Positions 1-33,290 of a stretch of DNA of 33,290 bases are shown in pieces. The position numbers were made by a program, and so were the translations under genes. Source of the stretch: a virus; IMG/VR virus record IMGVR_UViG_3300000279_000100, one strand, 5' to 3'. The notes under the pieces are model-generated. The model searched no databases, was not told where the DNA came from, and saw nothing but the letters and a program-made list of their open reading frames with translations. Every line of letters begins with the position of its first letter. Position 1 is the stretch's first letter.

Positions 1-54
1 TTATAGCATAAGCTTTATTAAGACATGTTGAAAATCGTTGTGTTTGTGTTTTGT
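1..54. repeat. Left copy of a 54-bp terminal direct repeat (att core or circular-contig overlap).
   Basis: ttatagcataagctttattaagacatgttgaaaatcgttgtgtttgtgttttgt is identical to 33237..33290. The repeat starts exactly at the window edge. Confidence 0.9.
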
Positions 55-2586: not shown

Positions 2587-5500
2587 TTATTTAATACTCT
2601 CCTTTCCTAATGCTCGTCTTGCAATTCGGACTTGCGACATTTGTATTTCATCCAGCCTCTTTCGTTTAGCATCACTGGATAAATCACTTTTCATGACTGC
2701 CTTCTTTGCCAGGTTAATATTCTGAAAAGCTTTCACGGCATTCTTCATCTGTTCAAATTCTCGCGGATCGAATCCGTCCATCCGCCTATGTAGTTCCCGC
2801 CCCGCATTAAATAATTTCAACTGCCTGTCATAGGCATCATAAACTTCCTGCACGCTTTCACTACTGGAATAAGGTGTGGCAGTAAATCCACGAATCCCCG
2901 GCTGTTCCGTCCATCTCTTTGCCGGACGTGTTTCATCCAGTCCTGCCACTCCGTCTGTAAGCGTCAATCCCAGTCCAGCAAGACTGCCGCCATATCCGCG
3001 GATTGTATTATCTATCTTTCGGGGTGAAACGCCGAACGTTTCACCTATTTTGCGACCTACCGCTGACGTGTAAGGGCCATACTGCAGTTCAGGGATTGTA
3101 TTCTGTTGGCTTTGTGGTACGATATCGCGCCCCATAAAGATGGAATGATTGGTCATTGCTTCAATAGCCGGCACTAATGCAGTCGGCAGGAATGATGGAG
3201 CCATAGAATCAAGTACAGAGCCGGCAAGGCCTTTGAATCCCACTCCCTTTTGTTTTCTTTTTTTGTCATAATCCCACTGCAGCATACGTTCCGGAACGGT
3301 ACCGAAAAGAATTCCCAGTTCAAAGGGTTTGGGGATTTTAATCAGAGTGTCTTTTGTAGGGATAATCCAGAAAATATCTTTCTGCCATTGTGGTAACTCC
3401 TGATACCGTGGATCGTCCTTGTTGAGTTCCCAGAGCAGGACTGACGGCAAGGTAATCCACATAGCCGTTTTTACCGTCATATCCCGTGGGTTAGCTTTCC
3501 ATTCACGGAACATCTTATCCGTCCCCTGAATGGCTGCATTGAAAAATGCAATCGTCTTATTCAGTGATTTTGTATGAGACCCTATTCGAGAGAAATCCAA
3601 CGTTACATCACGGCTTTCAAGCGCCGCTTCTTGAATACTGCCCGGATTTCGCTTTCTGCTGAACAGCCGATTTCCGATACCTGTATACCCTTTCCGGACA
3701 TTATGAAATTCTGCCAAGCGTGTAGCCATTTCTGTGGCTTCGGACAATCCGCGAAGTACTTCAATCGGATTTGTGGTTACCATCTTTTTGACGCTTGGCC
3801 GCTGCAACAAGTCTCTCATCTGTCCGGAAAGGTAATTTCTATCAAGAGAAACAAGATTAGCCTGTGCCGCGCCTGACCGCATGTATTCCCAGTAAGTATC
3901 GCCTTTCTGCAGATACAGCCCTAACCCTTTAAGAGTGTCTACAACGGGGATAAATCCATGCTTAGAGTAGATCGTAGCGGAAATCATGTCGCGGACAGGA
4001 TTTCGCAAGATAAATTCGGGCCCTAACGTCGCCCCGGCACGAAGCCATTTTGCCGGATAAGAAAGAAGCTTCGTAAACATGTTTGCACCTTCCGGATTCA
4101 ACATTTTAAATGCCTGATACAATTCCGGTGTCGTGTTATAAACGACTTTCTTTCCGTTTCTCCACACACTGAAACTATGATCCGTCACCTTTGCCGCACC
4201 GGACACTTTTTCAATCAATGCTCCCATGCCATCAACGTTTGCCAGTTTTACAATAGACTGCCCGACTTTATTCCGTTCGATGGCACTCATTATTGAGAAA
4301 GTATTCCGGATTATTCCTTCCAGTGGGTCTACTACATCTAAAGTGCTGCCGCGCATTTTCTTTGTGACAGCCCCCACATTAGCAAATCCTTTTCCTGTTC
4401 CATTCCTTTGTGCTTCTGCAGCTTCATAAAATTCACGGAAGAACGGTACATAATGAGGATATTTATTCTTCATGGCCATTGCAGCCTTTACCGATAACAT
4501 ACCGGCATCTACAGCATTTGCAAGCAGGAAATCATTATATCTGTGGATTTCCGTAGCGGCTTTCGCGAAAACAGGATTCTTCTCATAATGCTTGATGACG
4601 TCAAAACATTCTGATTTTGTAAATCTCGTAATCAGTGGTGTTTCATCTCGCGGTAAGAATGTATTCCAGTGGTTCATATCCAATTCGCGTAATGCGGTCA
4701 GATATGTAGAAAAATCTTTCAGCTGATTATCCGGGATTTTTCGGATAATCTCTTTAAAAGCGGGGATTCTATGCTTGGGCGAACCATTCTGCAGAAGGGC
4801 TTCTGCTTTACCTGCCCAACCGCGCGCAAGCCACGCCTGTTTGAATGCGTTTTCTTCTATCCTTAACTTTCTTCCCGTGCGTTTTTCTACTTCACCGATA
4901 AGTTCCTCTAATGGATGAAGTTCATCCACCATTGTAGTATACGGCTCATGATAAACTTTCCGTGCGACTTCCTTAGAATCCTTAAAGAATTTCAACGTTT
5001 TCCGCAGTAGATTTTCTTTACCGCCAAAAGAAACAGAACCTTTCATCCGTTCCCACACAGGCTGCGCATACCATTGATGGCCGACATAAGACAATTTGTC
5101 TACTGCAGCATGCAGGTCTTTATCACCTTCCAATATTTGTTTAAATTCCTTATAAAACAGTGGGAAATCAGAGGCTGCTGTTTTACGGCGCGTAACATAG
5201 TCATGGAAAAATTCAGCAATCCCTTCCTTTCGGATGGTTTTTATGCCACCTTTGTTATAGGCATTTCCGAAACGTTTATGGATAACATTGGAAAATTCTG
5301 TATCAAAACCAGGACGGTTGCTGAATTTAAACCTTGCATCCACATAGTGACCAAGTTCATGCATAACAGTTCGGGGATCCCCGAATGTTCTTGTTCGTAT
5401 AATATCCGTTTTAGGGTTATACCAGCCGTTGGTGCCTTTCTTACCGACACGCCCCTTCTTGATCGTAGCCCCGAAAATGCTATTTACATCATCAAGAATC

Positions 5501-7734
5501 TGCTTGCGTGAAATCGTCTCTCCCTGCCATGTGGTCAAGTCACTACCTGCTGCTTCTTCAACAGGTTTTACCATAAATGACCGTTCATCACCCGGCAATT
5601 TTACTTTTCCTGTTTCTTCTGCTACAATAGAGTTGCCAGATGGGTGGAGCTGGGTATCCGGCGTTGAACCCCTATCACTGGAGGGTTGCAGAGGATACCC
5701 TGACTGACGACCTCGAATATTTTCGCCGACGTAAATTAATTCGTCGGCGTTTTTTATATCTCTTGAAAGCTGATTAATAGCATTGTTTCGATGTCTGGGC
5801 TTATCCATAGCCGTACTTGAAGAGATAATTTTCCCTTTATCGGTTTTATCCATGCTGACCGCTATTTGATGTAACAAATTATCTTTTCCGCGCCATAGAT
5901 TCACATAGAGTTTTCTTCCGTTCTTTTGCTTAAGAATAAAATCCGGATTTTGAACAGTATCTTTTATCAACCCAGTTGCAAATGCACGGCTGTCAGAAAT
6001 AGACATATTTTCGCCATGTCCGGAAGTAAAAGCTTTAACTGCGTCATTTACTGCATTTTTGTTTTCTTTGTCAAAAATAACTCTTACTTTTTCTCCCATC
6101 GGATCGTCTATTCCGTCAGCAAGTTTAAGCGTTTCTTGACGTGCATATTCAAACTTCTGTTTTTCTGGTAAATCTTTAAATGCGTTATATCCCGCTTCAT
6201 CATAAGTACGGAACACTTCCTTGGGAATTGTCCCATCTTTGATACGATTGGACAATTCTTCCGGCGTAATATCTCTTACAGGATCTTTCATGAAATTCAG
6301 ACTTGCTTCTTCCGGTGCTGCCTGCTTCACATCTTCCACAAAATCATTGAAATTGTTCTGCTGTATAGAACGCTGCACAGGGCGAACACTACGACCGTCA
6401 TAGACTTCTCTGGCAACCTGCTGGCGGTATGCGTCATTGGCCACTGCCGGATCCGGACGTTCATACTGTTCGCGGACAATATGCGCCGCTTCTTCCGGAG
6501 TGATATTTGGATTTTTGCGGAGTGCTTCAAAAGCCGCCCGTTCCGTTGTATTCATCTCTTCGGAGATAAAATCTACCTGTGTACGCCAATCTTTAGGATC
6601 CAGTCCGTTTTCCCGGGCGAATTGCTCTAAATGCGCCTTTCTGTCGCCTGTCCACTGTACCAGCCCGTGGGAATTATATCCATCTTGCGAAAGCGCTTCC
6701 GTATCAAACATGGATTCTTGCGCAATATTTCCGGTAATCCCCGCCGCTTCGGAATCAGTAAATCCGTTCTGGCGGAGACGGTTGTAAACATCTGTTTTTA
6801 TATCTCCTGTTTCGCCGTATTCGGGCGGCAGGTTTGTTTCTTTAAGTGACTGCGTGCCCATCTCGGTATCACGGGCTAAATCGTCAAAACCTGTTTCTCC
6901 GCCACGTTTAAAAGAATCAAAAAAACGACCTTTGGCGTTGGCGAGGCCACTCTTCACCGGGTCAATAACATGTTCATTAAACGGTTCCGTCACATGCTCG
7001 CGGATAGGCTCGCTGATACTTTTCGGCGTTGCTTTTTTTATGCCTTTTGCCGCTCCGTGAATGACCGCGCCCGGTAAGAACACTTTATCCCACAATTCGG
7101 TCGGATTATCCACAAGGCTCTGTACATATTCTCCCGGATTGGTGACCGCCTCTTTAATGGGATTAATGACCGGATCCAAAAGAGCCCCTTTTGCTGTGCT
7201 GATAACAGGCGTGCCGTCGTCATTTGCAATGTTCTGGTCATAAGTCTGCATCGTAGAATCGACAAGAGTCGGGACAGCTAAAGCACCGCCTGTCATGCGG
7301 ACAATGCCGGGCATACCTGGTGTGATGGCAGCGTATCCGGCAGGTTTGCCTACCAGTTCATTGTAGACATTCATTTTCGCCCTGTTATAGTTTTCACCTT
7401 CAAAGCCTTGTGTCGGGTCTTCCATGTTGATGGATTCTCCGTTGTTATATGCTTCCATGGCACGTTCTCCTGCAGCCGTAATTTCATTGCCGTAATTTTC
7501 TATCGCTTTGCCGGCATTAGCCGCGTAATCAGAAAGAGTATTCCATACATTGGCTTTTGTCTTCTCCCACTGCGCTTTACGCGCTGCACGCCCTTCTTCA
7601 TAGGATTCATCTATGCTATTTAAAAAGCCTTTGGCCTTATCAAGCAAAGACGAATCCTGCGGCGGCTGATTTTTGAATTCATCAAAATATCTTTCACCAC
7701 CGCTGGTACGTTGAAATTCATCAAAATAACCCAT
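2587..7734 (-). CDS. Giant polyvalent virion/ejection protein. Contains a phage-tail-lysozyme-like domain and a zincin HExxH metallopeptidase motif.
   Basis: 1715 aa. ITGNIAQESMFDT...GLVQWTGDRKAHLEQFARENG...VDFISEEMN matches the phage tail lysozyme (PF18013-like) pattern. Zincin motif VMHELGHYVD. Last gene of the virion module, before lysis. Confidence 0.6.
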   Translation of the reverse strand: MGYFDEFQRTSGGERYFDEFKNQPPQDSSLLDKAKGFLNSIDESYEEGRAARKAQWEKTKANVWNTLSDYAANAGKAIENYGNEITAAGERAMEAYNNGESINMEDPTQGFEGENYNRAKMNVYNELVGKPAGYAAITPGMPGIVRMTGGALAVPTLVDSTMQTYDQNIANDDGTPVISTAKGALLDPVINPIKEAVTNPGEYVQSLVDNPTELWDKVFLPGAVIHGAAKGIKKATPKSISEPIREHVTEPFNEHVIDPVKSGLANAKGRFFDSFKRGGETGFDDLARDTEMGTQSLKETNLPPEYGETGDIKTDVYNRLRQNGFTDSEAAGITGNIAQESMFDTEALSQDGYNSHGLVQWTGDRKAHLEQFARENGLDPKDWRTQVDFISEEMNTTERAAFEALRKNPNITPEEAAHIVREQYERPDPAVANDAYRQQVAREVYDGRSVRPVQRSIQQNNFNDFVEDVKQAAPEEASLNFMKDPVRDITPEELSNRIKDGTIPKEVFRTYDEAGYNAFKDLPEKQKFEYARQETLKLADGIDDPMGEKVRVIFDKENKNAVNDAVKAFTSGHGENMSISDSRAFATGLIKDTVQNPDFILKQKNGRKLYVNLWRGKDNLLHQIAVSMDKTDKGKIISSSTAMDKPRHRNNAINQLSRDIKNADELIYVGENIRGRQSGYPLQPSSDRGSTPDTQLHPSGNSIVAEETGKVKLPGDERSFMVKPVEEAAGSDLTTWQGETISRKQILDDVNSIFGATIKKGRVGKKGTNGWYNPKTDIIRTRTFGDPRTVMHELGHYVDARFKFSNRPGFDTEFSNVIHKRFGNAYNKGGIKTIRKEGIAEFFHDYVTRRKTAASDFPLFYKEFKQILEGDKDLHAAVDKLSYVGHQWYAQPVWERMKGSVSFGGKENLLRKTLKFFKDSKEVARKVYHEPYTTMVDELHPLEELIGEVEKRTGRKLRIEENAFKQAWLARGWAGKAEALLQNGSPKHRIPAFKEIIRKIPDNQLKDFSTYLTALRELDMNHWNTFLPRDETPLITRFTKSECFDVIKHYEKNPVFAKAATEIHRYNDFLLANAVDAGMLSVKAAMAMKNKYPHYVPFFREFYEAAEAQRNGTGKGFANVGAVTKKMRGSTLDVVDPLEGIIRNTFSIMSAIERNKVGQSIVKLANVDGMGALIEKVSGAAKVTDHSFSVWRNGKKVVYNTTPELYQAFKMLNPEGANMFTKLLSYPAKWLRAGATLGPEFILRNPVRDMISATIYSKHGFIPVVDTLKGLGLYLQKGDTYWEYMRSGAAQANLVSLDRNYLSGQMRDLLQRPSVKKMVTTNPIEVLRGLSEATEMATRLAEFHNVRKGYTGIGNRLFSRKRNPGSIQEAALESRDVTLDFSRIGSHTKSLNKTIAFFNAAIQGTDKMFREWKANPRDMTVKTAMWITLPSVLLWELNKDDPRYQELPQWQKDIFWIIPTKDTLIKIPKPFELGILFGTVPERMLQWDYDKKRKQKGVGFKGLAGSVLDSMAPSFLPTALVPAIEAMTNHSIFMGRDIVPQSQQNTIPELQYGPYTSAVGRKIGETFGVSPRKIDNTIRGYGGSLAGLGLTLTDGVAGLDETRPAKRWTEQPGIRGFTATPYSSSESVQEVYDAYDRQLKLFNAGRELHRRMDGFDPREFEQMKNAVKAFQNINLAKKAVMKSDLSSDAKRKRLDEIQMSQVRIARRALGKESIK

Positions 7735-24541: not shown

Positions 24542-25377
24542 CCATCTTTAATACCTTTCCACTCTTCCGGAGAAGCAATATGTCCGTAGCTTCCTCCCGC
24601 TTTTTTCTGCTTTGGTCTTTTGAGTGACCAGAATCCGAGCCATTGATTTTCAATTGACTGCTCTACAATGAGAATGGCGTCCTCTATATTCCCGTTTGAT
24701 AATTTTTTGAGTTGTGTCAAATTCTTTTTAAGAGCCGTCGGTGATACAGAAGCTTTCCTTTCTTCTCTCATGTCCAACCACCTTCGGAGTGATTCTTCCA
24801 ATTCAGGATTGGATGAAAAGTAAGATTGAATGATTTCATCTTGAGAAGAAAGAACGTTCTTTTCTTCTTCCTTTTCTTTACTTTCCTTTTCTTTACTTTC
24901 CTTTCCTTTTCTTTTCTTTACTTTACTTTGTTCATTACTGTATACATTAATCGAGTTATTGCATACATTAATTGAGTTATTGTCGACATTAACGGAAATG
25001 AGTGCAAAATCCCTACGGAGAAACGCTGCTTTTCTTCGAGAAGTTACCTCCAAAAATCTTTTTTGGATTCCCGCAGAAGTCAGAATTCCATGTTTTTCCT
25101 TCATGCTTGCATCAAAGAAACCGACCTGTAAGGCTCTTTTAACAACCTCTTGTACGCATCCTTCCGTGACGCCAATCTCATCCGCCACTATGAAAGGCAA
25201 ATCCTCTGTCCACCAAATGTAGTACCCCTCGTCTCGATAGCAGCTACCCAGCAGCCAGATTAGTACTGAAATTGCCGACGCACCGCATGACTTAATTATC
25301 CGGCGCACTTTCATATCCTGTAAAAAGCCGACATCCAAGGGAAAGTAATCAAGCCCTTGTTTGAGCGGCCGTGCCAT
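24535..25377 (-). CDS. Replisome organizer / replication initiator (DUF4373-type N-terminus, DnaD-like C-terminus).
   Basis: N-terminus MARPLKQGLDYFPLDV. Internal iterons and a low-complexity KEKESKEKE linker. Confidence 0.7.
   Translation of the reverse strand: MARPLKQGLDYFPLDVGFLQDMKVRRIIKSCGASAISVLIWLLGSCYRDEGYYIWWTEDLPFIVADEIGVTEGCVQEVVKRALQVGFFDASMKEKHGILTSAGIQKRFLEVTSRRKAAFLRRDFALISVNVDNNSINVCNNSINVYSNEQSKVKKRKGKESKEKESKEKEEEKNVLSSQDEIIQSYFSSNPELEESLRRWLDMREERKASVSPTALKKNLTQLKKLSNGNIEDAILIVEQSIENQWLGFWSLKRPKQKKAGGSYGHIASPEEWKGIKDGW
24945..24996. repeat. Iterons: 2.5 tandem copies of a 21-bp unit inside the initiator gene; putative origin of replication.
   Basis: acattaatcgagttattgcat / acattaattgagttattgtcg / acattaacgg. 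An AT-rich run follows at 24850..24930. Confidence 0.5.
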
Positions 25378-28600: not shown

Positions 28601-28899
28601 AACCCCTCCTGCACTGCTGCCGTATTAGCGGCTATACAAATCTGCCGGATGACGCCCCGCAGTCGTGCGTTTTCCTGTTTCTCAAGAGACAATTCATTCT
28701 TAAGTCTTCGTAATGCAGACGGGCGGAAATCGTCAGGCTTCTCACCGACCATCGCCAGCACATCGCGCTTTAGAAAACGGATGGCAGACAGATTTTTCAC
28801 CGCCGGAAGGATGCCGTCATTTTTCATGCGGTAGACGACATCCGTTGATATGCCCAAGATTTCAGCGGTTTCTGCGACGGTGTATGTCCTTCGTTCCAT
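28597..28899 (-). CDS. Excisionase/AlpA-family HTH DNA-binding protein.
   Basis: YTVAETAEILGISTDVVYRMKNDGILPAVK is a winged-helix Xis/MerR-like motif. Confidence 0.55.
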   Translation of the reverse strand: MERRTYTVAETAEILGISTDVVYRMKNDGILPAVKNLSAIRFLKRDVLAMVGEKPDDFRPSALRRLKNELSLEKQENARLRGVIRQICIAANTAAVQEGL

Positions 28900-28963
28900 T
28901 TTTCTCTCCTTTCTTGTTTTTAAATTCCGTGGTAGGTTGTTACAATTCTCTTTCTGTTCACTC

Positions 28964-28972
28964 TGTTATAAT
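28964..28972 (+). promoter_or_regulatory. Extended -10 promoter (TGtTATAAT) for the plus-strand cassette.
   Basis: tgttataat lies 25 nt upstream of the ATG at 28997. Confidence 0.4.
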
Positions 28973-28996
28973 GTTGGCAGAGAGGAGGTGAACACT

Positions 28997-29278
28997 ATGA
29001 TATTTGCTTTAAAAATCAAGAAACGCCCCGGTGTCGGTCTGTTAAATTTTGACCTTTGGGAAATTTCAGAAATATTCCTTAGCGGTGATGGAATATTAGG
29101 ATATTTCCCTAAAGAAGAAATTCATGACTATTTATTAACTCATCCGCACAGCATAAGAGTTAATCGCGGGAATATGCCGTTCCTTGAACCTCGAATCAGT
29201 AAAAACGGCGAAAAATACGTTGCCTCTGAAGCAAATGACACAATTTTAGACAATCTTTTATCACTACCCCAGGAATAA
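28997..29278 (+). CDS. Hypothetical 93-aa protein. Self-contained plus-strand cassette embedded antisense in the early operon.
   Basis: Strong RBS GAGAGGAGGTG 7 nt before the ATG. Own extended -10 promoter and own terminator. About 35% GC. No recognisable domain. Confidence 0.6.
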   Translation: MIFALKIKKRPGVGLLNFDLWEISEIFLSGDGILGYFPKEEIHDYLLTHPHSIRVNRGNMPFLEPRISKNGEKYVASEANDTILDNLLSLPQE

Positions 29279-29471
29279 GGAACCAAGAAGACAGCGCGTT
29301 TCCGTCGTGCTGTTTTTCTTTTGAATACCTTCCCCTGTATCGTTCATATCGTTTTACTTCTTCAAAAAGGTCCACATCCAGTACATCAAAAACGTGGAAT
29401 AGCATTGCACGCTTGTAGTTTTCATGCGAATTCTTATTTAAGACATAACCATTAATATTTACCTCTTCCAT
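29196..29471 (-). CDS. Hypothetical early protein (ORF overlaps the 3' end of the plus-strand cassette).
   Basis: RBS GAGGTGAGGAG adjoining the ATG. Overlaps 29196..29278 convergently. C-terminal residues look atypical. Confidence 0.35.
   Translation of the reverse strand: MEEVNINGYVLNKNSHENYKRAMLFHVFDVLDVDLFEEVKRYERYRGRYSKEKQHDGNALSSWFLIPGVVIKDCLKLCHLLQRQRIFRRFY
29291..29323 (+). terminator. Intrinsic terminator after the plus-strand cassette.
   Basis: ACAGCGCG-tttccgt-CGTGCTGT followed by TTTTTCTTTTG. Confidence 0.55.
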
Positions 29472-29716
29472 CTCCTCACCTCTCTTTCTTGCATATTATG
29501 CAAGTTTAAGTTAAAAAAAATACTTATACTCTCCTCATTATTCAAACATAACAAACGTTTAAGCTTTGTGGCCTCCCAGCAAGAAAAAGGCCTCTTCCCG
29601 TTGATTTTATCGCTAAACGAATTTACTGAAATAGATAGATAATCTGCACACTCTTTATAATTCTTTTTATTTGCTACTATAGCTCCTTTTAGTTTGAGCA
29701 TTTCCATTTGTTTCAC
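29459..29716 (-). CDS. Cro-like small HTH early regulator.
   Basis: 85 aa. LKGAIVANKKNYKECADYLSISVNSFSDKINGKRPFSCWEATKLKRLL. AAGGAGGAGGTG RBS. Divergent from the repressor gene. Confidence 0.6.
   Translation of the reverse strand: MKQMEMLKLKGAIVANKKNYKECADYLSISVNSFSDKINGKRPFSCWEATKLKRLLCLNNEESISIFFNLNLHNMQEREVRRWKR
29488..29504. promoter_or_regulatory. Perfect 17-bp palindromic operator CTTGCATATTATGCAAG.
   Basis: Perfect dyad. Two related copies lie in the switch region. Confidence 0.55.
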
Positions 29717-29732
29717 CTCCTCCTTATCTTAA

Positions 29733-29749
29733 CTTGCATATTGTACAAG
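29733..29749. promoter_or_regulatory. Operator variant CTTGCATATTGTACAAG, just downstream of the predicted early promoter start site.
   Basis: Shares the half-site CTTGCATA/TGTACAAG with the 29488 and 29830 copies. Confidence 0.5.
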
Positions 29750-29762
29750 TTTTACTATCCTA

Positions 29763-29790
29763 ATTATACGTGTTCAAAAGATATTGTCAA
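29763..29790 (-). promoter_or_regulatory. Consensus sigma-A promoter for the cro-like operon (TTGACA - 16 nt - TATAAT on the minus strand).
   Basis: Plus-strand tgtcaa at 29785..29790 and attata at 29763..29768. Confidence 0.55.
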
Positions 29791-29829
29791 GCACTACATA
29801 CAAGTTTTTTTATCACAACAGAAAATATA

Positions 29830-29846
29830 CTTGTATCTTGTACAAA
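29830..29846. promoter_or_regulatory. Third operator-like 17-mer CTTGTATCTTGTACAAA overlapping the candidate repressor-gene promoter.
   Basis: Related half-sites: TACAAGT at 29799..29805 and TTGTAC at 29851..29856. TTGTAT-17-TACTAT is a candidate PRM. Confidence 0.4.
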
Positions 29847-29886
29847 ATTATTGTACTATTATTTTAATAGAATCGAGGTGAAATAA

Positions 29887-30534
29887 ATGGATGAATTACA
29901 ATATAACAGGCATGTGGGCTCACGTATAAAAGAAATGCGAAAGTCCAGAAAAATGACATTAAAGGAACTCGGTGAGCATATCGGACTTAGTGAAAGTAAC
30001 ACCAAGCGTTATGAAGATGGGCAGATAAAGACAGTAGGAATAGATATCATAAAAAAAATTGCAATGGCATTGGATGTACCTGCATCGTATCTCACAGGAT
30101 GGGAAGATATTCCTCAATATCAAAAACTCTCAAATTATGTGCCGATTGCAAGGAAAAAAATCCCCCTTTTGGGAGAAATTGCCGCAGGAGAACCTATCTA
30201 TGCAGATGAACATATAGAAGAATTCTTGCCAGCCGATGATAAATTGCATGCTGACTTTGCCTTGAAAATCAAAGGTGACAGTATGATAAATGCCCAGATA
30301 AACGATGGCGATATTGTTTTTATACGTCAGCAGTCCGATGTAGATGATGGACAAATAGCTGCCGTTTTAATAAACGACAGTGCTACATTAAAACGCATTT
30401 ATCATATGAATGGCTTTCTACAGCTGAATGCAGAAAACCCTGCTTACAAACCTATTATATGCAGTCCTGAAACCTGTGACGAATGCCGTATTCTGGGACT
30501 TGCGGTCGCTGTATTAGGAAAAATAAAGTATTGA
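29887..30534 (+). CDS. cI/LexA-type prophage repressor (XRE HTH plus S24 autopeptidase).
   Basis: HTH LKELGEHIGLSESNTKRYEDG. S24 motifs GDSM and DGDIVFIRQ...LKRI (Ser/Lys dyad). Confidence 0.85.
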   Translation: MDELQYNRHVGSRIKEMRKSRKMTLKELGEHIGLSESNTKRYEDGQIKTVGIDIIKKIAMALDVPASYLTGWEDIPQYQKLSNYVPIARKKIPLLGEIAAGEPIYADEHIEEFLPADDKLHADFALKIKGDSMINAQINDGDIVFIRQQSDVDDGQIAAVLINDSATLKRIYHMNGFLQLNAENPAYKPIICSPETCDECRILGLAVAVLGKIKY

Positions 30535-30555: not shown

Positions 30556-31029
30556 ATGCAATATGTTTTATATTTTTGCGGAGAGATTGTTTTCCTATTC
30601 ATTCTGTCTTGGATTTATGCGCGTTTATCGGAAAAGGGAAATCCGCGAAGGTCATTAAATCGTATCGGAAGAAAACTTTATTCAAAAATAATAAAAAGAG
30701 AAATGGAGAACGCAAAAAAAGAAAATCGCCTACCAGATGACTGGTATCCATTAAGGATCCTCTATTCAGAAATAAGAGAACAATATCCGGGGTATGCACT
30801 TTCAGATATTTACACAAAAGAGGGTAAATATTTATCCGACCTCGTTTTAGAAGAATCTACAATTTACGGAAAATTCATTTCATCGGAATTGGAGCATTCA
30901 ATAAAATCTATTGCTTCAAAGATTAATATATGTGCTTTACTCGTATTAGTTAAAGTGGCAGAAGAGAAATACGGTAAGGAAGAAGCCAGAAAATATGCAT
31001 ATGATATTTTAATTGGACGACTGGAATGA
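30556..31029 (+). CDS. Hypothetical protein with N-terminal TM anchor; first gene of the repressor-linked cassette.
   Basis: 157 aa. TM segment IVFLFILSWIYA. About 30% GC. Starts 21 nt after the repressor stop. ATGA overlap with the next gene. Confidence 0.5.
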   Translation: MQYVLYFCGEIVFLFILSWIYARLSEKGNPRRSLNRIGRKLYSKIIKREMENAKKENRLPDDWYPLRILYSEIREQYPGYALSDIYTKEGKYLSDLVLEESTIYGKFISSELEHSIKSIASKINICALLVLVKVAEEKYGKEEARKYAYDILIGRLE

Positions 31030-31580
31030 GGGATACTTCAATGACATTCGAATTTACACTTTTCATGATCTTTTCGCTGTATCCATTAGTGTTTTTATTA
31101 GGCGAAAAAGGATGGGATAACACGATTGAACGATATCTATCTTTTAAAAGTATTCTTCCTACAGAATATTTTGTTCCTCGTTTTTTATGGACAACTTTTA
31201 TTTCTGCCATTTTAATTTATTCTGCCCCCAGTATGTGGGCAAATAATTATGAATATCAAGACTATATAACAGGACATGAATATGTTTATTCATTGCCAGA
31301 AAAACGACAAAGACAAATTTTTTCGATTTTGACTAAACAGCAAGCCTACCTTACATCTCGTTATGGAGTCACTAATACACAAGAAAAAGTTGACGCCGCC
31401 GCAGTTCTTCAAGAGAAAAATATTAAATATAATATTTTTCATCTCTCTCCGCTCCATCCACAAATTTATTTCGAAGATCACTTCTTTATTGCAAGAAATA
31501 TTCGAATAATTATATTTTTATTATTCGCCCCAATATACATTTCCCTTTTTGTTCGTTTTATTAGATTTATAGGTTGGTAA
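31026..31580 (+). CDS. Hypothetical polytopic membrane protein.
   Basis: 184 aa. At least three hydrophobic helices: FTLFMIFSLYPLVFLLG, FLWTTFISAILIYSAPSMW, IRIIIFLLFAPIYISLFVRFIRF. About 30% GC. Confidence 0.5.
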   Translation: MRDTSMTFEFTLFMIFSLYPLVFLLGEKGWDNTIERYLSFKSILPTEYFVPRFLWTTFISAILIYSAPSMWANNYEYQDYITGHEYVYSLPEKRQRQIFSILTKQQAYLTSRYGVTNTQEKVDAAAVLQEKNIKYNIFHLSPLHPQIYFEDHFFIARNIRIIIFLLFAPIYISLFVRFIRFIGW

Positions 31581-31606
31581 CAAAATTACAGAAAGAAGGC
31601 GTAAAA

Positions 31607-31828
31607 ATGTTCAAGAAATCTATTCTCACACTTTCATTAGCTGCTGTACTGTCTGTTTCCATTGCCGGCATAGTAGATGCCTACATCGGGAATCTCCGCA
31701 GCCACAAATTCCATGAAGACTATTGCAGTAGTGTCTACCAGATGAAAGATCGTAACAAAGTCTATTTCGATACGCGTGATGAAGCGATAAACGCAGGATA
31801 CGTTCCCTGCAAAAGATGTAATCCATAA
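31607..31828 (+). CDS. Small secreted protein with Ada-N-terminal-like zinc-ribbon domain.
   Basis: AGAAGG RBS. Signal peptide MFKKSILTLSLAAVLSVSIAG. YFDTRDEAINAGYVPCKRCNP resembles E. coli Ada FYANASEALAAGFRPCKRCQP. Confidence 0.5.
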   Translation: MFKKSILTLSLAAVLSVSIAGIVDAYIGNLRSHKFHEDYCSSVYQMKDRNKVYFDTRDEAINAGYVPCKRCNP

Positions 31829-31876
31829 GCCATTTCTTTACAAAGCACTCCATTATTTCTATAATGATTCCAGAAC

Positions 31877-31897
31877 AAAAAACGGTTTTCCGTTTTG
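31877..31897 (+). terminator. Short hairpin with U-run ending the lysogeny operon before int.
   Basis: aaaacgg-tttt-ccgtttt. Confidence 0.35.
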
Positions 31898-32095
31898 CGG
31901 GGATGGTTTCGTTATAGATACCATCCCTATTTTTTATTCAATTATAAAATCCCGCCGCCATACCGCAAATATGACGACGGGAACCGGAACGATAGAGGGT
32001 ATCCTTCCGGCAATTGTAACAACCCTACCACAGGCTGGTTACGCATATATTATAGCACAATCAGCCCTGTTTCAGAAAAGGAGCTGATTTTTATT

Positions 32096-33166
32096 ATGGA
32101 ATATTCATTTTCGACGCGTGAGAAGAACGGCAGTATTTGCCTTATTCTGTCATATAAGGTAAATAGCAAATGGAAGCAGAAAACCAAACAAGGATTTAAA
32201 ACCTTGCGGGAAGCCAAACAATACCAAGATAAATTATTAGCCGCTGCCAAAGAAGATGCCGCCTGCGGAGCAGATCCGGAACTTGCGGATATTACCTTTA
32301 AAAGTTTCACACAGAATATATACTTGCGGGATAAAGGATCCTCTTTAGAATATAGCACAAAAAGGAACTATTTCTTTATGCTCCGCAGCATTCCTACCCT
32401 GAGCAATAAACAAATACGGGAGATCACCGCCGGAGATGTAATTAATGTTTATCAGGATATGGGGCGATTCAGCGAAGGCACAAGAAAGAATCGTTTCGCT
32501 CAGATTCGTGCCATCTTTAACTATGCTATTAACCCGTATAAAATTATTACAGAAAATCCTGCGAATAGCGTTACACAAACAAAAGATAAAACTATCCGGA
32601 AAATAAAAGCATTGACTGAAAAAGAATCATTGCAATTGCTTGATGCCTTAAGTGATACCCCCACTTTTTACATGATTGCTTTCATTGCCTTAAATACAGG
32701 TATGAGATACGGGGAAATAGCCGGATTGACATGGAACAGTATTAATTTAACAAGACAAACAATTACCATAGATAAGCAATATAACTGGATATCACCCCAA
32801 AAACGGGGATTTAAAGCCGTAAAATCACGGAACGGAAATCGAACTATACACATGAATACAAAATTGGCCGCCAAGTTAAATGAATGGAAACAGACCGCCC
32901 CTGTATCCATTGACGGGCGAATTATTCCTACAACACCAAGCACTCATCCACTCATGAATAGGCAGCTGCGTATATTAAAACAGGGTATCTCTGTTCATAC
33001 TTTGCGACACACCTTTGCCACCATGCTTTTATCAAAATCAAAGGATATTAATCTTGTTGCGGCTGTTTTAGGGGATAATGTCGCTACCGTAGCAGCTACC
33101 TATATTCATTATACAGATGATATTCGCAAAAAAGCAGACCAATATATAGAAACCATGTACAAATGA
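32096..33166 (+). CDS. int: Tyrosine site-specific recombinase (phage integrase).
   Basis: AAAGGAG RBS before the ATG at 32096. Catalytic signature GMRYGEIAGLTW (Arg) ... HTLRHTFATMLL (His-x-x-Arg) ... ATYIHYTDD (Tyr). The upstream ORF extension to 31895 is rejected. Confidence 0.9.
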   Translation: MEYSFSTREKNGSICLILSYKVNSKWKQKTKQGFKTLREAKQYQDKLLAAAKEDAACGADPELADITFKSFTQNIYLRDKGSSLEYSTKRNYFFMLRSIPTLSNKQIREITAGDVINVYQDMGRFSEGTRKNRFAQIRAIFNYAINPYKIITENPANSVTQTKDKTIRKIKALTEKESLQLLDALSDTPTFYMIAFIALNTGMRYGEIAGLTWNSINLTRQTITIDKQYNWISPQKRGFKAVKSRNGNRTIHMNTKLAAKLNEWKQTAPVSIDGRIIPTTPSTHPLMNRQLRILKQGISVHTLRHTFATMLLSKSKDINLVAAVLGDNVATVAATYIHYTDDIRKKADQYIETMYK

Positions 33167-33236: not shown

Positions 33237-33290
33237 TTATAGCATAAGCTTTATTAAGACATGTTGAAAATCGTTGTGTTTGTGTTTTGT
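33237..33290. repeat. Right copy of the 54-bp terminal direct repeat.
   Basis: Identical to 1..54 and ends exactly at the window edge. Confidence 0.9.

Follow-up and report, generated by a model that had tools for sequence, protein, structure and literature searches.

What is the role of the small genes that lie between the repressor and the integrase of a temperate phage from the human gut? The question is raised by IMG/VR virus record IMGVR_UViG_3300000279_000100, a stretch of 33,290 nucleotides that is referred to here as the window. Three + strand genes occur there directly behind a cI/LexA-type repressor gene: g1 (30556-31029), g2 (31026-31580) and g3 (31607-31828). An earlier reading of the letters alone (hereafter, the sequence-only reading) took them to be a single cassette of envelope-targeted proteins and a candidate superinfection-exclusion or defence system. 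Its open reading frames of 157, 184 and 73 amino acids are found at these coordinates and on this strand. Based on genomic context, exclusion or abortive infection by lysogen-expressed genes is the best-supported reading of the locus. We tentatively propose an anti-phage function at the inner membrane of the lysogen, in which g1 would be the portable core and g2 a partner specific to this lineage. This proposal is based on the position behind the repressor, low guanine-cytosine (GC) content, transfer as a mosaic block, and the presence of defence genes in the same slot. However, the three genes do not behave as one system. The g1-g2 pair is a tightly linked, co-inherited membrane pair that forms the constant core, and g3 is a separately acquired, exchangeable gene.

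The genes g1, g2 and g3 are real, because their conservation extends over more than 12 related loci and their pairwise ratios of nonsynonymous to synonymous substitution (dN/dS) are 0.09-0.31. The values (0.31 for g1, 0.16 for g2 and 0.09-0.16 for g3) indicate purifying selection on all three. Relatives of the genes were identified in prophages from human-gut metagenomes; here and below, loci compared with the window carry L-numbers (L001 etc.). On the 1.58-Mb contig of one of these (L003, 10001-11251), g1 and g3 look frameshifted. We set aside the idea that these copies are pseudogenes, as yqaJ is also split on this contig and assembly indels are the probable cause. The cassette has a GC content of 33.9%, compared to 43.2% for the genome, and ranks among the lowest 0.6% of windows of the same size. 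Thus, the earlier description of the region as unusually GC-poor holds, although the figure of about 30% given with it is too low. The low value is due to g1 (33%) and g2 (31%); the GC content of g3 is 41.9%.

The position of the genes suggests when they are expressed. The repressor (29887-30534, + strand, 215 amino acids) has an N-terminal helix-turn-helix (HTH) domain and a C-terminal Peptidase_S24 domain, and was identified by matches to PF00717 (6e-30), HTH_19/HTH_3 and the phrog_4 repressor family (2e-41). It ends 21 nt before the start of g1 and is co-oriented with it, as originally described. A sequence scan from the repressor start through the g3 end revealed no + strand terminator-like site. 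Beyond g3, two hairpins (31879-31896 and 31899-31928) are followed by a U-run (31929-31938), which together have the form of a + strand intrinsic terminator. The second hairpin consists of 9+2 bp and is followed by AUUUUUUAUU. The folding is stable (minimum free energy -30.4 kcal/mol, z = -4.29), and none of 200 shuffled sequences folded as well. A terminator ahead of the integrase gene (int) had been claimed previously, and it likely closes a transcription unit of repressor, g1, g2 and g3. Given the tight linkage to the repressor on the same strand and the lack of a terminator-like site before the end of g3, g1-g3 are probably expressed in the lysogen by read-through from the repressor promoter. 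A near-consensus promoter-like sequence (TTTACA-17-TATAAT, 11/12 positions) is also present at 31837-31865, between the g3 stop and the terminator hairpins.

The g1 protein has an N-terminal transmembrane (TM) helix at approximately residues 3-22, a basic juxtamembrane stretch with seven lysine or arginine (K/R) residues within 20 residues after the helix, and a C-terminal domain of about 130 amino acids. This domain is all-helical by prediction and carries the conserved motif YGkEEArKYAyDIl.GrLe. Among 1.84 billion representative proteins, searched with a g1 profile, only 14 relatives were recovered (E < 0.001; counted as clusters at 50% identity). All are 150-200 amino acids long and align end to end. 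Shared motifs are the basic juxtamembrane segment, often NG.PWRR, and a C-terminal CPQLVIAK..E..YG.EEA.KYA.DI.TGKLK; the pattern search used a four-member subset of the family, as no stretch is conserved enough in the 14-member alignment. Two TM helices, linked by an uncharged loop of 1-6 residues, are present in some relatives, and most of these have K/R in the N-tail. Those with a single helix have nearly no N-tail. In all 14 members, 4-7 K/R follow the last TM helix. By the positive-inside rule, these counts, which are alike in the one-helix and two-helix variants, predict that the conserved C-terminal domain faces the cytoplasm. Thus, of the description of g1 as envelope-targeted, the membrane anchor stands, but the conserved domain is predicted to be on the cytoplasmic side.

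Profile searches with g1 returned no match in Pfam, NCBIfam, PHROGs, PADLOC or the PDB, and a tblastn search of 50,697 phage records was also negative. When the 14 family members were compared to PADLOC, there was only one match, at chance level (E = 0.0086). A weak match to Csx1_HEPN (E = 0.06) was rejected, as the g1 family alignment has no conserved R-x4-6-H motif. Thus, g1 founds a small, unannotated protein family. We propose to define this family by size, one or two N-terminal TM helices, a basic juxtamembrane segment, a helical domain and location between a repressor and a recombinase gene, all of which are features of g1 in the window.

The location of g1-like genes is consistent. In 16 of about 17 distinct arrangements with enough flanking sequence, the gene is on the repressor strand and between the repressor (or repressor plus ImmA) and a tyrosine or serine recombinase, usually 1-120 nt past the repressor module. 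This is the outcome of a survey of other prophages that the sequence-only reading had recommended. The sole exception (L033) is a homologue beside a type III restriction-modification (R-M) system, on a short contig in which no repressor was seen. Distant g1 homologues (24-30% identity) occupy this slot in unrelated prophages, mostly as a single gene with an S24 repressor on one side and a tyrosine integrase on the other (L020, L024, L042, L049-54). In L028 and L034 the homologue follows an HTH plus ImmA pair; that of L028 also stands alone, and most g1-like genes occur without g2 or g3. Other genes in the slot include Abi_2, RhuM and R-M genes. Abi_2 genes are found in two of the loci: in L034 (Veillonella intestinalis), where Abi_2 is the next gene after the g1 homologue, and in L044. 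In L022 the g1 homologue lies amid genes for secreted proteins (Adhesin_E-like and PG_binding) carried as accessory "morons", which are followed by a serine recombinase.

The g2 gene (+ strand) encodes a polytopic membrane protein of 184 amino acids if translation begins at the ATG at 31026, or 179 amino acids if it begins at the ATG at 31041. The g1 stop overlaps the first of these as ATGA. This overlap, which had been pointed out before, is also kept in a relative with 77% identity. The second, in-frame ATG is preceded by a conserved GAGGGA Shine-Dalgarno sequence, and gene callers took the start of this type in most homologous loci (179-180 amino acids). Either start is possible for g2, and the g1-g2 spacing would permit translational coupling in both cases. 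The protein is predicted to have about three TM helices (residues 1-21, 48-66 and 155-175) and a soluble loop of about 85 amino acids.

Unlike g1, which is found across lineages, g2 is known only from the phage group of the window. No relatives below 78% identity were found, and none at all in 185,579 GTDB species genomes, the 50,697 phage records or the PDB; two were identified in IMG/VR. Searches of Pfam, NCBIfam, PHROGs and PADLOC returned nothing credible, and a g2 profile compared to all open reading frames beside the distant g1 homologues gave no match. Thus, the view that the products belong to no recognised family holds for g1 and g2, for which all profile searches were negative, but not for g3 (see below). 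We regard g2 as a new family, and as a lineage-specific partner of g1 with three predicted TM helices.

Comparison of related prophages indicates which parts of the cassette travel together. In the phage group of the window (the window, L001-L008 and L043-L048), g1 is always followed by g2. The third slot is variable. It is occupied by g3 in the window, L001-3 and L043, and by a gene for an unrelated 63-amino-acid cytoplasmic protein (MPKHDPRLDDLDYIMKNM...), without g3, in L004-7, L045 and L047. Both g3 and the 63-amino-acid gene are present in L008 and L046, and in L044 the 63-amino-acid gene is followed by an Abi_2-like gene. Variation also occurs ahead of the pair, as L004-L006 have an additional gene, for a 203-amino-acid polytopic membrane protein, that separates g1 from the repressor. 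DNA breakpoints at 31599 and 31836 coincide with the borders of g3. Between the window and L001, synonymous divergence (dS) is 0.01-0.02 for g1 and g2 and 1.24 for g3; the history of g3 therefore differs from that of g1-g2. The claim of a single three-gene system is not supported, given that g3 is gained, lost and replaced independently and that neither g2 nor g3 accompanies distant homologues of g1.

The same comparison shows that g1-g2 moves as a low-GC block between prophages that differ in their immunity region and integrase. Identity between the window and L001 is 97% for g1 and 100% for g2, and only 71% for the repressor and 57% for the integrase. The shared mosaic block starts at 30133, which is the junction of the HTH and S24 domains of the repressor, and this breakpoint is common to several related prophages. 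Thus, immunity specificity is swapped independently of the S24 domain and g1-g2.

A different prophage, unrelated to that of the window and represented by L026/L027, encodes a g1 homologue (P0012, about 30% identity), a 98-amino-acid polytopic protein and a g3 homologue of 70 amino acids (in L026, with a signal peptide and a PF02805 match at 27.9 bits). The 98-amino-acid protein is not related to g2, based on the g2 profile search. This arrangement keeps a loose association of g1 and g3 alive, although it is outweighed by their independence elsewhere.

The g3 gene (+ strand) encodes a Sec-type signal peptide (MFKKSILTLSLAAVLSVSIAGIVDA/YIGN, with cleavage predicted after VDA) and a mature domain of only 48 amino acids. 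As Dialister, the host, is diderm, the signal peptide would deliver this domain to the periplasm. The sequence-only reading called g3 a secreted zinc ribbon. This is ruled out by membership of g3 in the Pfam family Ada_Zn_binding (PF02805; 31.2 bits against a cutoff of 23, E = 2.2e-7), which makes it an ADA_N-like zinc finger instead. The predicted metal site is H36-x3-C40...C68-x2-C71. C40, C68 and C71 align with C42, C69 and C72 of Ada (1ADN/1U8B), and H36 replaces Ada C38; the histidine is kept in the relatives inspected. Also conserved is the motif EAxxAGYxPCKRCxP. We conclude that g3 is, by prediction, a stand-alone periplasmic ADA_N-like finger with a His-Cys3 site.

Assignment of g3 to the Ada repair/regulator family itself (NCBIfam NF011964) was rejected (18 bits against a cutoff of 345). 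Unlike Ada, g3 has only 73 amino acids, a signal peptide and histidine at the C38 position. The literature is split between C38 and C69 as the methyl acceptor of Ada. The domain of g3 is alone behind its signal peptide, with no HTH, AraC or methyltransferase part, and is prophage-borne. We also rejected the NCBIfam "sunset" domain (NF051437; 14.7 bits against a cutoff of 27), with which g3 shares only a related C-terminal motif. No PADLOC family matches g3 at E <= 1.

Stand-alone exported versions of 70-73 amino acids form a family, and precomputed PF02805 matches are recorded for 28 of 31 g3 relatives. Selenomonadaceae contigs (L036-L039) encode a 71-amino-acid exported homologue with 46% identity. 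On Selenomonadaceae chromosomes the g3-like gene has a housekeeping neighbourhood (AMMECR1/LigB, g3-like, fmt, ruvB), and its stop overlaps the fmt start. Given this chromosomal homologue, the prophage g3 looks like a captured cellular gene type. In the Heliusvirales gut phages L029, L030 and L031 (PV036429, PV036445 and PV036446), the domain is the C-terminus of non-specific Endonuclea_NS_2 nucleases of 210-339 amino acids, a fusion that recurs. ADA_N-like domains are also listed in ECOD at the C-termini of secreted or wall proteins (Clostridioides difficile Cwp27, ComEC and ArfC), and their function outside Ada is stated to be unknown (PMC12353581). As the same domain ends Endonuclea_NS_2 nucleases and ComEC, g3 is suspected to bind nucleic acid and, by analogy, may do so in the periplasm.

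Taken together, the flagged region is the accessory part of a probable lysogeny operon, in which transcription from the repressor promoter would continue through g1, g2 and g3 in the lysogen. In the proposed mechanism, g1, joined by g2 in this lineage, would act at the cytoplasmic membrane on superinfecting phages. It could do so in two ways: the inner-membrane step of DNA entry could be blocked, as it is by SieA of phage P22, or infection could be sensed at the cytoplasmic face and the membrane collapsed, as by RexAB or PdpSau/AbiP. The g3 protein would be an add-on, possibly binding nucleic acid in the periplasm.

Known systems provide precedents for this, none of which is related to the genes studied here. 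Sie2009 (orf2 of phage Tuc2009) has the same slot and orientation as g1, in the order repressor-sie-integrase (int-orf2-cI2009 in Tuc2009). The two proteins are similar in size (173 amino acids for Sie2009, 157 for g1), and each has a single N-terminal TM helix. The sie2009 gene is reportedly expressed in the lysogen and blocks DNA injection. However, we found no sequence relationship between Sie2009 and the g1 family profile (hhalign probability 0.2%), and the proteins are organized differently. The N-tail of Sie2009 is basic, its linker is rich in Ser/Thr and its C-terminal part is not helical, which imply an N-in/C-out orientation, whereas in g1 the N-tail is missing, the basic stretch follows the TM helix, the domain is helical and the predicted topology is the opposite.

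In phage lambda, rexA-rexB adjoin cI on the same strand, as g1-g2 adjoin the repressor, and are co-transcribed with cI. RexB (144 amino acids) is polytopic, and g2 (here in its 179-amino-acid form) is likewise a small polytopic protein. In contrast, RexA is a soluble protein of 279 amino acids and g1 is membrane-anchored, and g1-like genes mostly lack a g2-like partner, unlike the RexA/RexB pair. Alignment by hhalign gave probabilities of 0.2% for the g1 family against RexA and 0.1% for g2 against RexB, and no Rex family was identified in the Pfam scan at E <= 1.

SieA of P22 is an inner-membrane protein of 162-164 amino acids with three predicted TM helices that is expressed from the prophage and suffices to block DNA injection (PMC10883804). 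In size class and TM count, g2 resembles SieA. This is analogy only, as no significant similarity was detected (hhalign probability 3%). In addition, sieA is located in the immI region with a promoter of its own, not behind the main repressor, and SieA acts alone, whereas g2 has never been seen without g1.

PdpSau of Staphylococcus aureus prophages and AbiP of Lactococcus have an N-terminal anchor and a cytoplasmic C-terminal domain, and act by abortive infection, in which the membrane is depolarised (PMC10127798). They are the closest architectural analogue of g1, and are also a case of a prophage accessory gene in which a single protein suffices. PdpSau is larger (278 amino acids), with a positively charged domain like an oligonucleotide/oligosaccharide-binding (OB) fold, and its gene follows the amidase gene in the lysis module. 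In contrast, g1 is all-helical and encoded behind the repressor, and the two have no Pfam, PHROG or PADLOC family in common. Lipoproteins of the Ltp type, another kind of exclusion protein, have a lipobox cysteine, whereas the g3 signal peptide ends in ...AGIVDA before Y, with no cysteine. No cleavable signal peptide was found in g1 or g2, and no family of lipoprotein type in the Pfam and PHROG scans.

Several points weigh against an anti-phage function. None of g1-g3 is homologous to a characterised exclusion or defence protein in PADLOC-DB v2, PHROGs or the hhalign tests. Pairwise dN/dS gives no sign of positive selection, with a value of 0.42 for the central domain of g1. Remote homology searches and structure prediction, which the sequence-only reading had put forward as a check, placed g3 in PF02805 but returned no match for g1 and g2, for which the AlphaFold2 models are unusable (pLDDT, a per-residue confidence score, of 48 for g1 with 3 sequences and 45 for g2 with 4 sequences). 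The co-transcription of the repressor with g1, g2 and g3 is deduced from sequence alone. Furthermore, a position in the lysogeny module is equally typical of conversion genes without a defence function, and strict adjacency to the repressor could equally mean a regulatory role.

These last two points lead to the alternatives. As a conversion function outside phage defence, the membrane pair, g3 or both could alter envelope physiology of the lysogen; for example, g3 might bind DNA, inhibit natural transformation and so protect the prophage from chromosomal curing. The 46%-identical chromosomal g3 homologue in its housekeeping neighbourhood indicates a cellular role for the g3 family, and the slot of L022 holds other secreted or envelope morons (the Adhesin_E-like and PG_binding proteins). 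ADA_N-like domains occur in ComEC (PMC12353581) and in secreted nucleases. Conflict between mobile genetic elements and competence is documented elsewhere (PMC12378983, PMC12637031), and it lends this scenario some plausibility. However, neither g1 nor g2 is linked to any host pathway, and Abi_2, RhuM and R-M as slot neighbours point to conflict systems, so that we consider a conversion role somewhat unlikely. A role in lysogeny control is unlikely in our estimation. Here, membrane-tethered g1 would work with the repressor or ImmA, for example by sensing signals from the envelope or from infection and tuning repressor stability or prophage induction, and incoming phages would not be its target. 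That g1-like genes are almost always next after the repressor or an ImmA-type M78 protease (with gaps of 1-21 nt in many loci), that the g1 domain is predicted to be on the cytoplasmic side, where the repressor is, and that the g1-g2 mosaic block reaches back into the repressor as far as the first part of the S24 domain, are all compatible with such a role. Exchange of the immunity region is a feature of temperate-phage mosaicism and would also give a breakpoint at the HTH/S24 junction, where the DNA-binding part of the repressor ends. Moreover, g1 pairs with three different repressor architectures (S24, HTH plus M78, and a short HTH with intervening genes in L022), is parted from the repressor by another gene in L004-6, and in one member adjoins the type III R-M system on a short contig that shows no repressor. 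The family is also rare and sporadic, with 14 clusters at 50% identity in 1.84e9 proteins.

The original version of the exclusion idea, in which g1, g2 and g3 are obligate parts of one envelope-spanning system, is very unlikely. The three-part pattern is seen twice (the window group, and P0012 with the 98-amino-acid polytopic protein and g3 homologue in L026/L027), but the 98-amino-acid protein of the second case is not related to g2, and most g1-like genes are alone. Within the phage group of the window, g3 may be absent, replaced or accompanied by the 63-amino-acid gene, with breakpoints at its borders, and it differs from g1/g2 both in dS (1.24 against 0.01-0.02, for L001) and in GC content (41.9% against 31-33%). 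A toxin-antitoxin (addiction) module, or a holin/antiholin-like module for lysis timing that happens to be sited in the lysogeny region, would fit small membrane proteins with N-terminal TM helices, encoded by two neighbouring genes that may be translationally coupled and that move as a block. We find this hardly credible, as no holin or toxin-antitoxin family similarity was detected in Pfam, NCBIfam or PHROGs, g1-like genes are single in most lineages, unlike two-part toxin-antitoxin systems, and the lysis genes are elsewhere (endolysin at 1366-2061). Thus, an anti-phage function of g1, with g2 in this lineage, is the interpretation that we tentatively retain.

The genome that carries the locus is a complete temperate tailed phage of Dialister invisus. 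A 54-nt perfect direct repeat (window 1-54 = 33237-33290) indicates that the genome is complete, with 33,236 bp, and either was assembled as a circle or is terminally redundant. The host, D. invisus, is a diderm Negativicute of the human gut. RefSeq proteins WP_337462424.1 and WP_337939895.1 (both "hypothetical protein [Dialister invisus]") are within the 90%-identity clusters of g1 and g2, and copA, which flanks a near-identical prophage, has 73% identity to a sequence from a Dialister metagenome-assembled genome. There is no DNA or protein match to the flagged region, g1 or g2 among the 50,697 phage records, and scans of this region for Rfam families and tRNA genes gave no match. Literature on the sunset domain, PF02805 and Dialister prophages yielded no study on g1-g3.

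The lysogeny module occupies the right end of the window on the + strand, in the order switch, repressor, g1, g2, g3, terminator and int. The switch region (29717-29886, 26.5% GC) lies between the repressor gene and a divergent cro-like gene (29459-29716, - strand). It includes operator-like palindromes around TTGTACAA at 29732-29749 and 29829-29848, in which the repeat ACTTG(C/T)AT(A/C)TTGTACAA covers 29732-29748 and 29829-29845, and a perfect leftward sigma-70 promoter (TTGACA-16-TATAAT, 29790-29763, - strand). A related palindrome, CTTGCATATTATGCAAG, is located at 29488-29504, upstream of the next leftward open reading frame. The far edge of the accessory slot is int (32096-33166, + strand), which encodes a tyrosine integrase of 356 amino acids with Arm-DNA-bind_4 and Phage_integrase domains (phrog_1, 1e-56). 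The phage attachment site (attP) is expected in the interval that separates the int end (33166) from a gene for a 199-amino-acid DUF7338 protein (188-787, - strand). In the near-identical integrated prophages L001 and L002, a Fic-domain gene is present directly past the integrase (L001 13208-14290); it falls outside the circular phage genome of the window.

Genes for terminase, portal, major head protein, a 1715-amino-acid tail protein and the endolysin are on the - strand, as are genes for a YqaJ exonuclease and an HTH_17 protein. Residues ~300-445 of the tail protein (2587-7734, - strand) match a tape-measure family, and its C-terminal ~950 residues match phrog_9854, a large family without assigned function. 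An open reading frame on the + strand (28850-29278) amid the - strand early genes has a DUF3892 match (25.1 bits, cutoff 22.3), and may be another accessory gene that is transcribed independently. At 24868-24929, also in the early-gene region, near-tandem repeats (TTCCTTTTCTTTAC... units) overlap to form a CT-rich run.

Repressor-linked membrane morons of prophages are known as a kind; what is new is the g1 and g2 families and the consistent position of g1. The g1 family is small and does not conflict with current understanding. Exclusion and abortive-infection systems have proved to be encoded between repressor and integrase in prophages; next to nothing is known of such systems in Negativicutes, diderm Bacillota that are abundant in the human gut and mouth. 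In a more far-reaching proposal, which we think improbable, g1, alone or with g2, founds a repressor-coupled membrane anti-phage system of prophages in Negativicutes and other Bacillota. Its cytoplasmic helical domain would detect or block DNA delivery at the inner membrane, and some lineages would add a DNA-binding periplasmic ADA_N-like finger. If true, this would be the first function for extracytoplasmic ADA_N-like domains. If g1 is not protective, these genes would be ordinary hypothetical prophage morons. If it is protective, g1 would represent a new single- or two-gene membrane defence, and would offer a way into the study of how phage DNA enters diderm Firmicutes.

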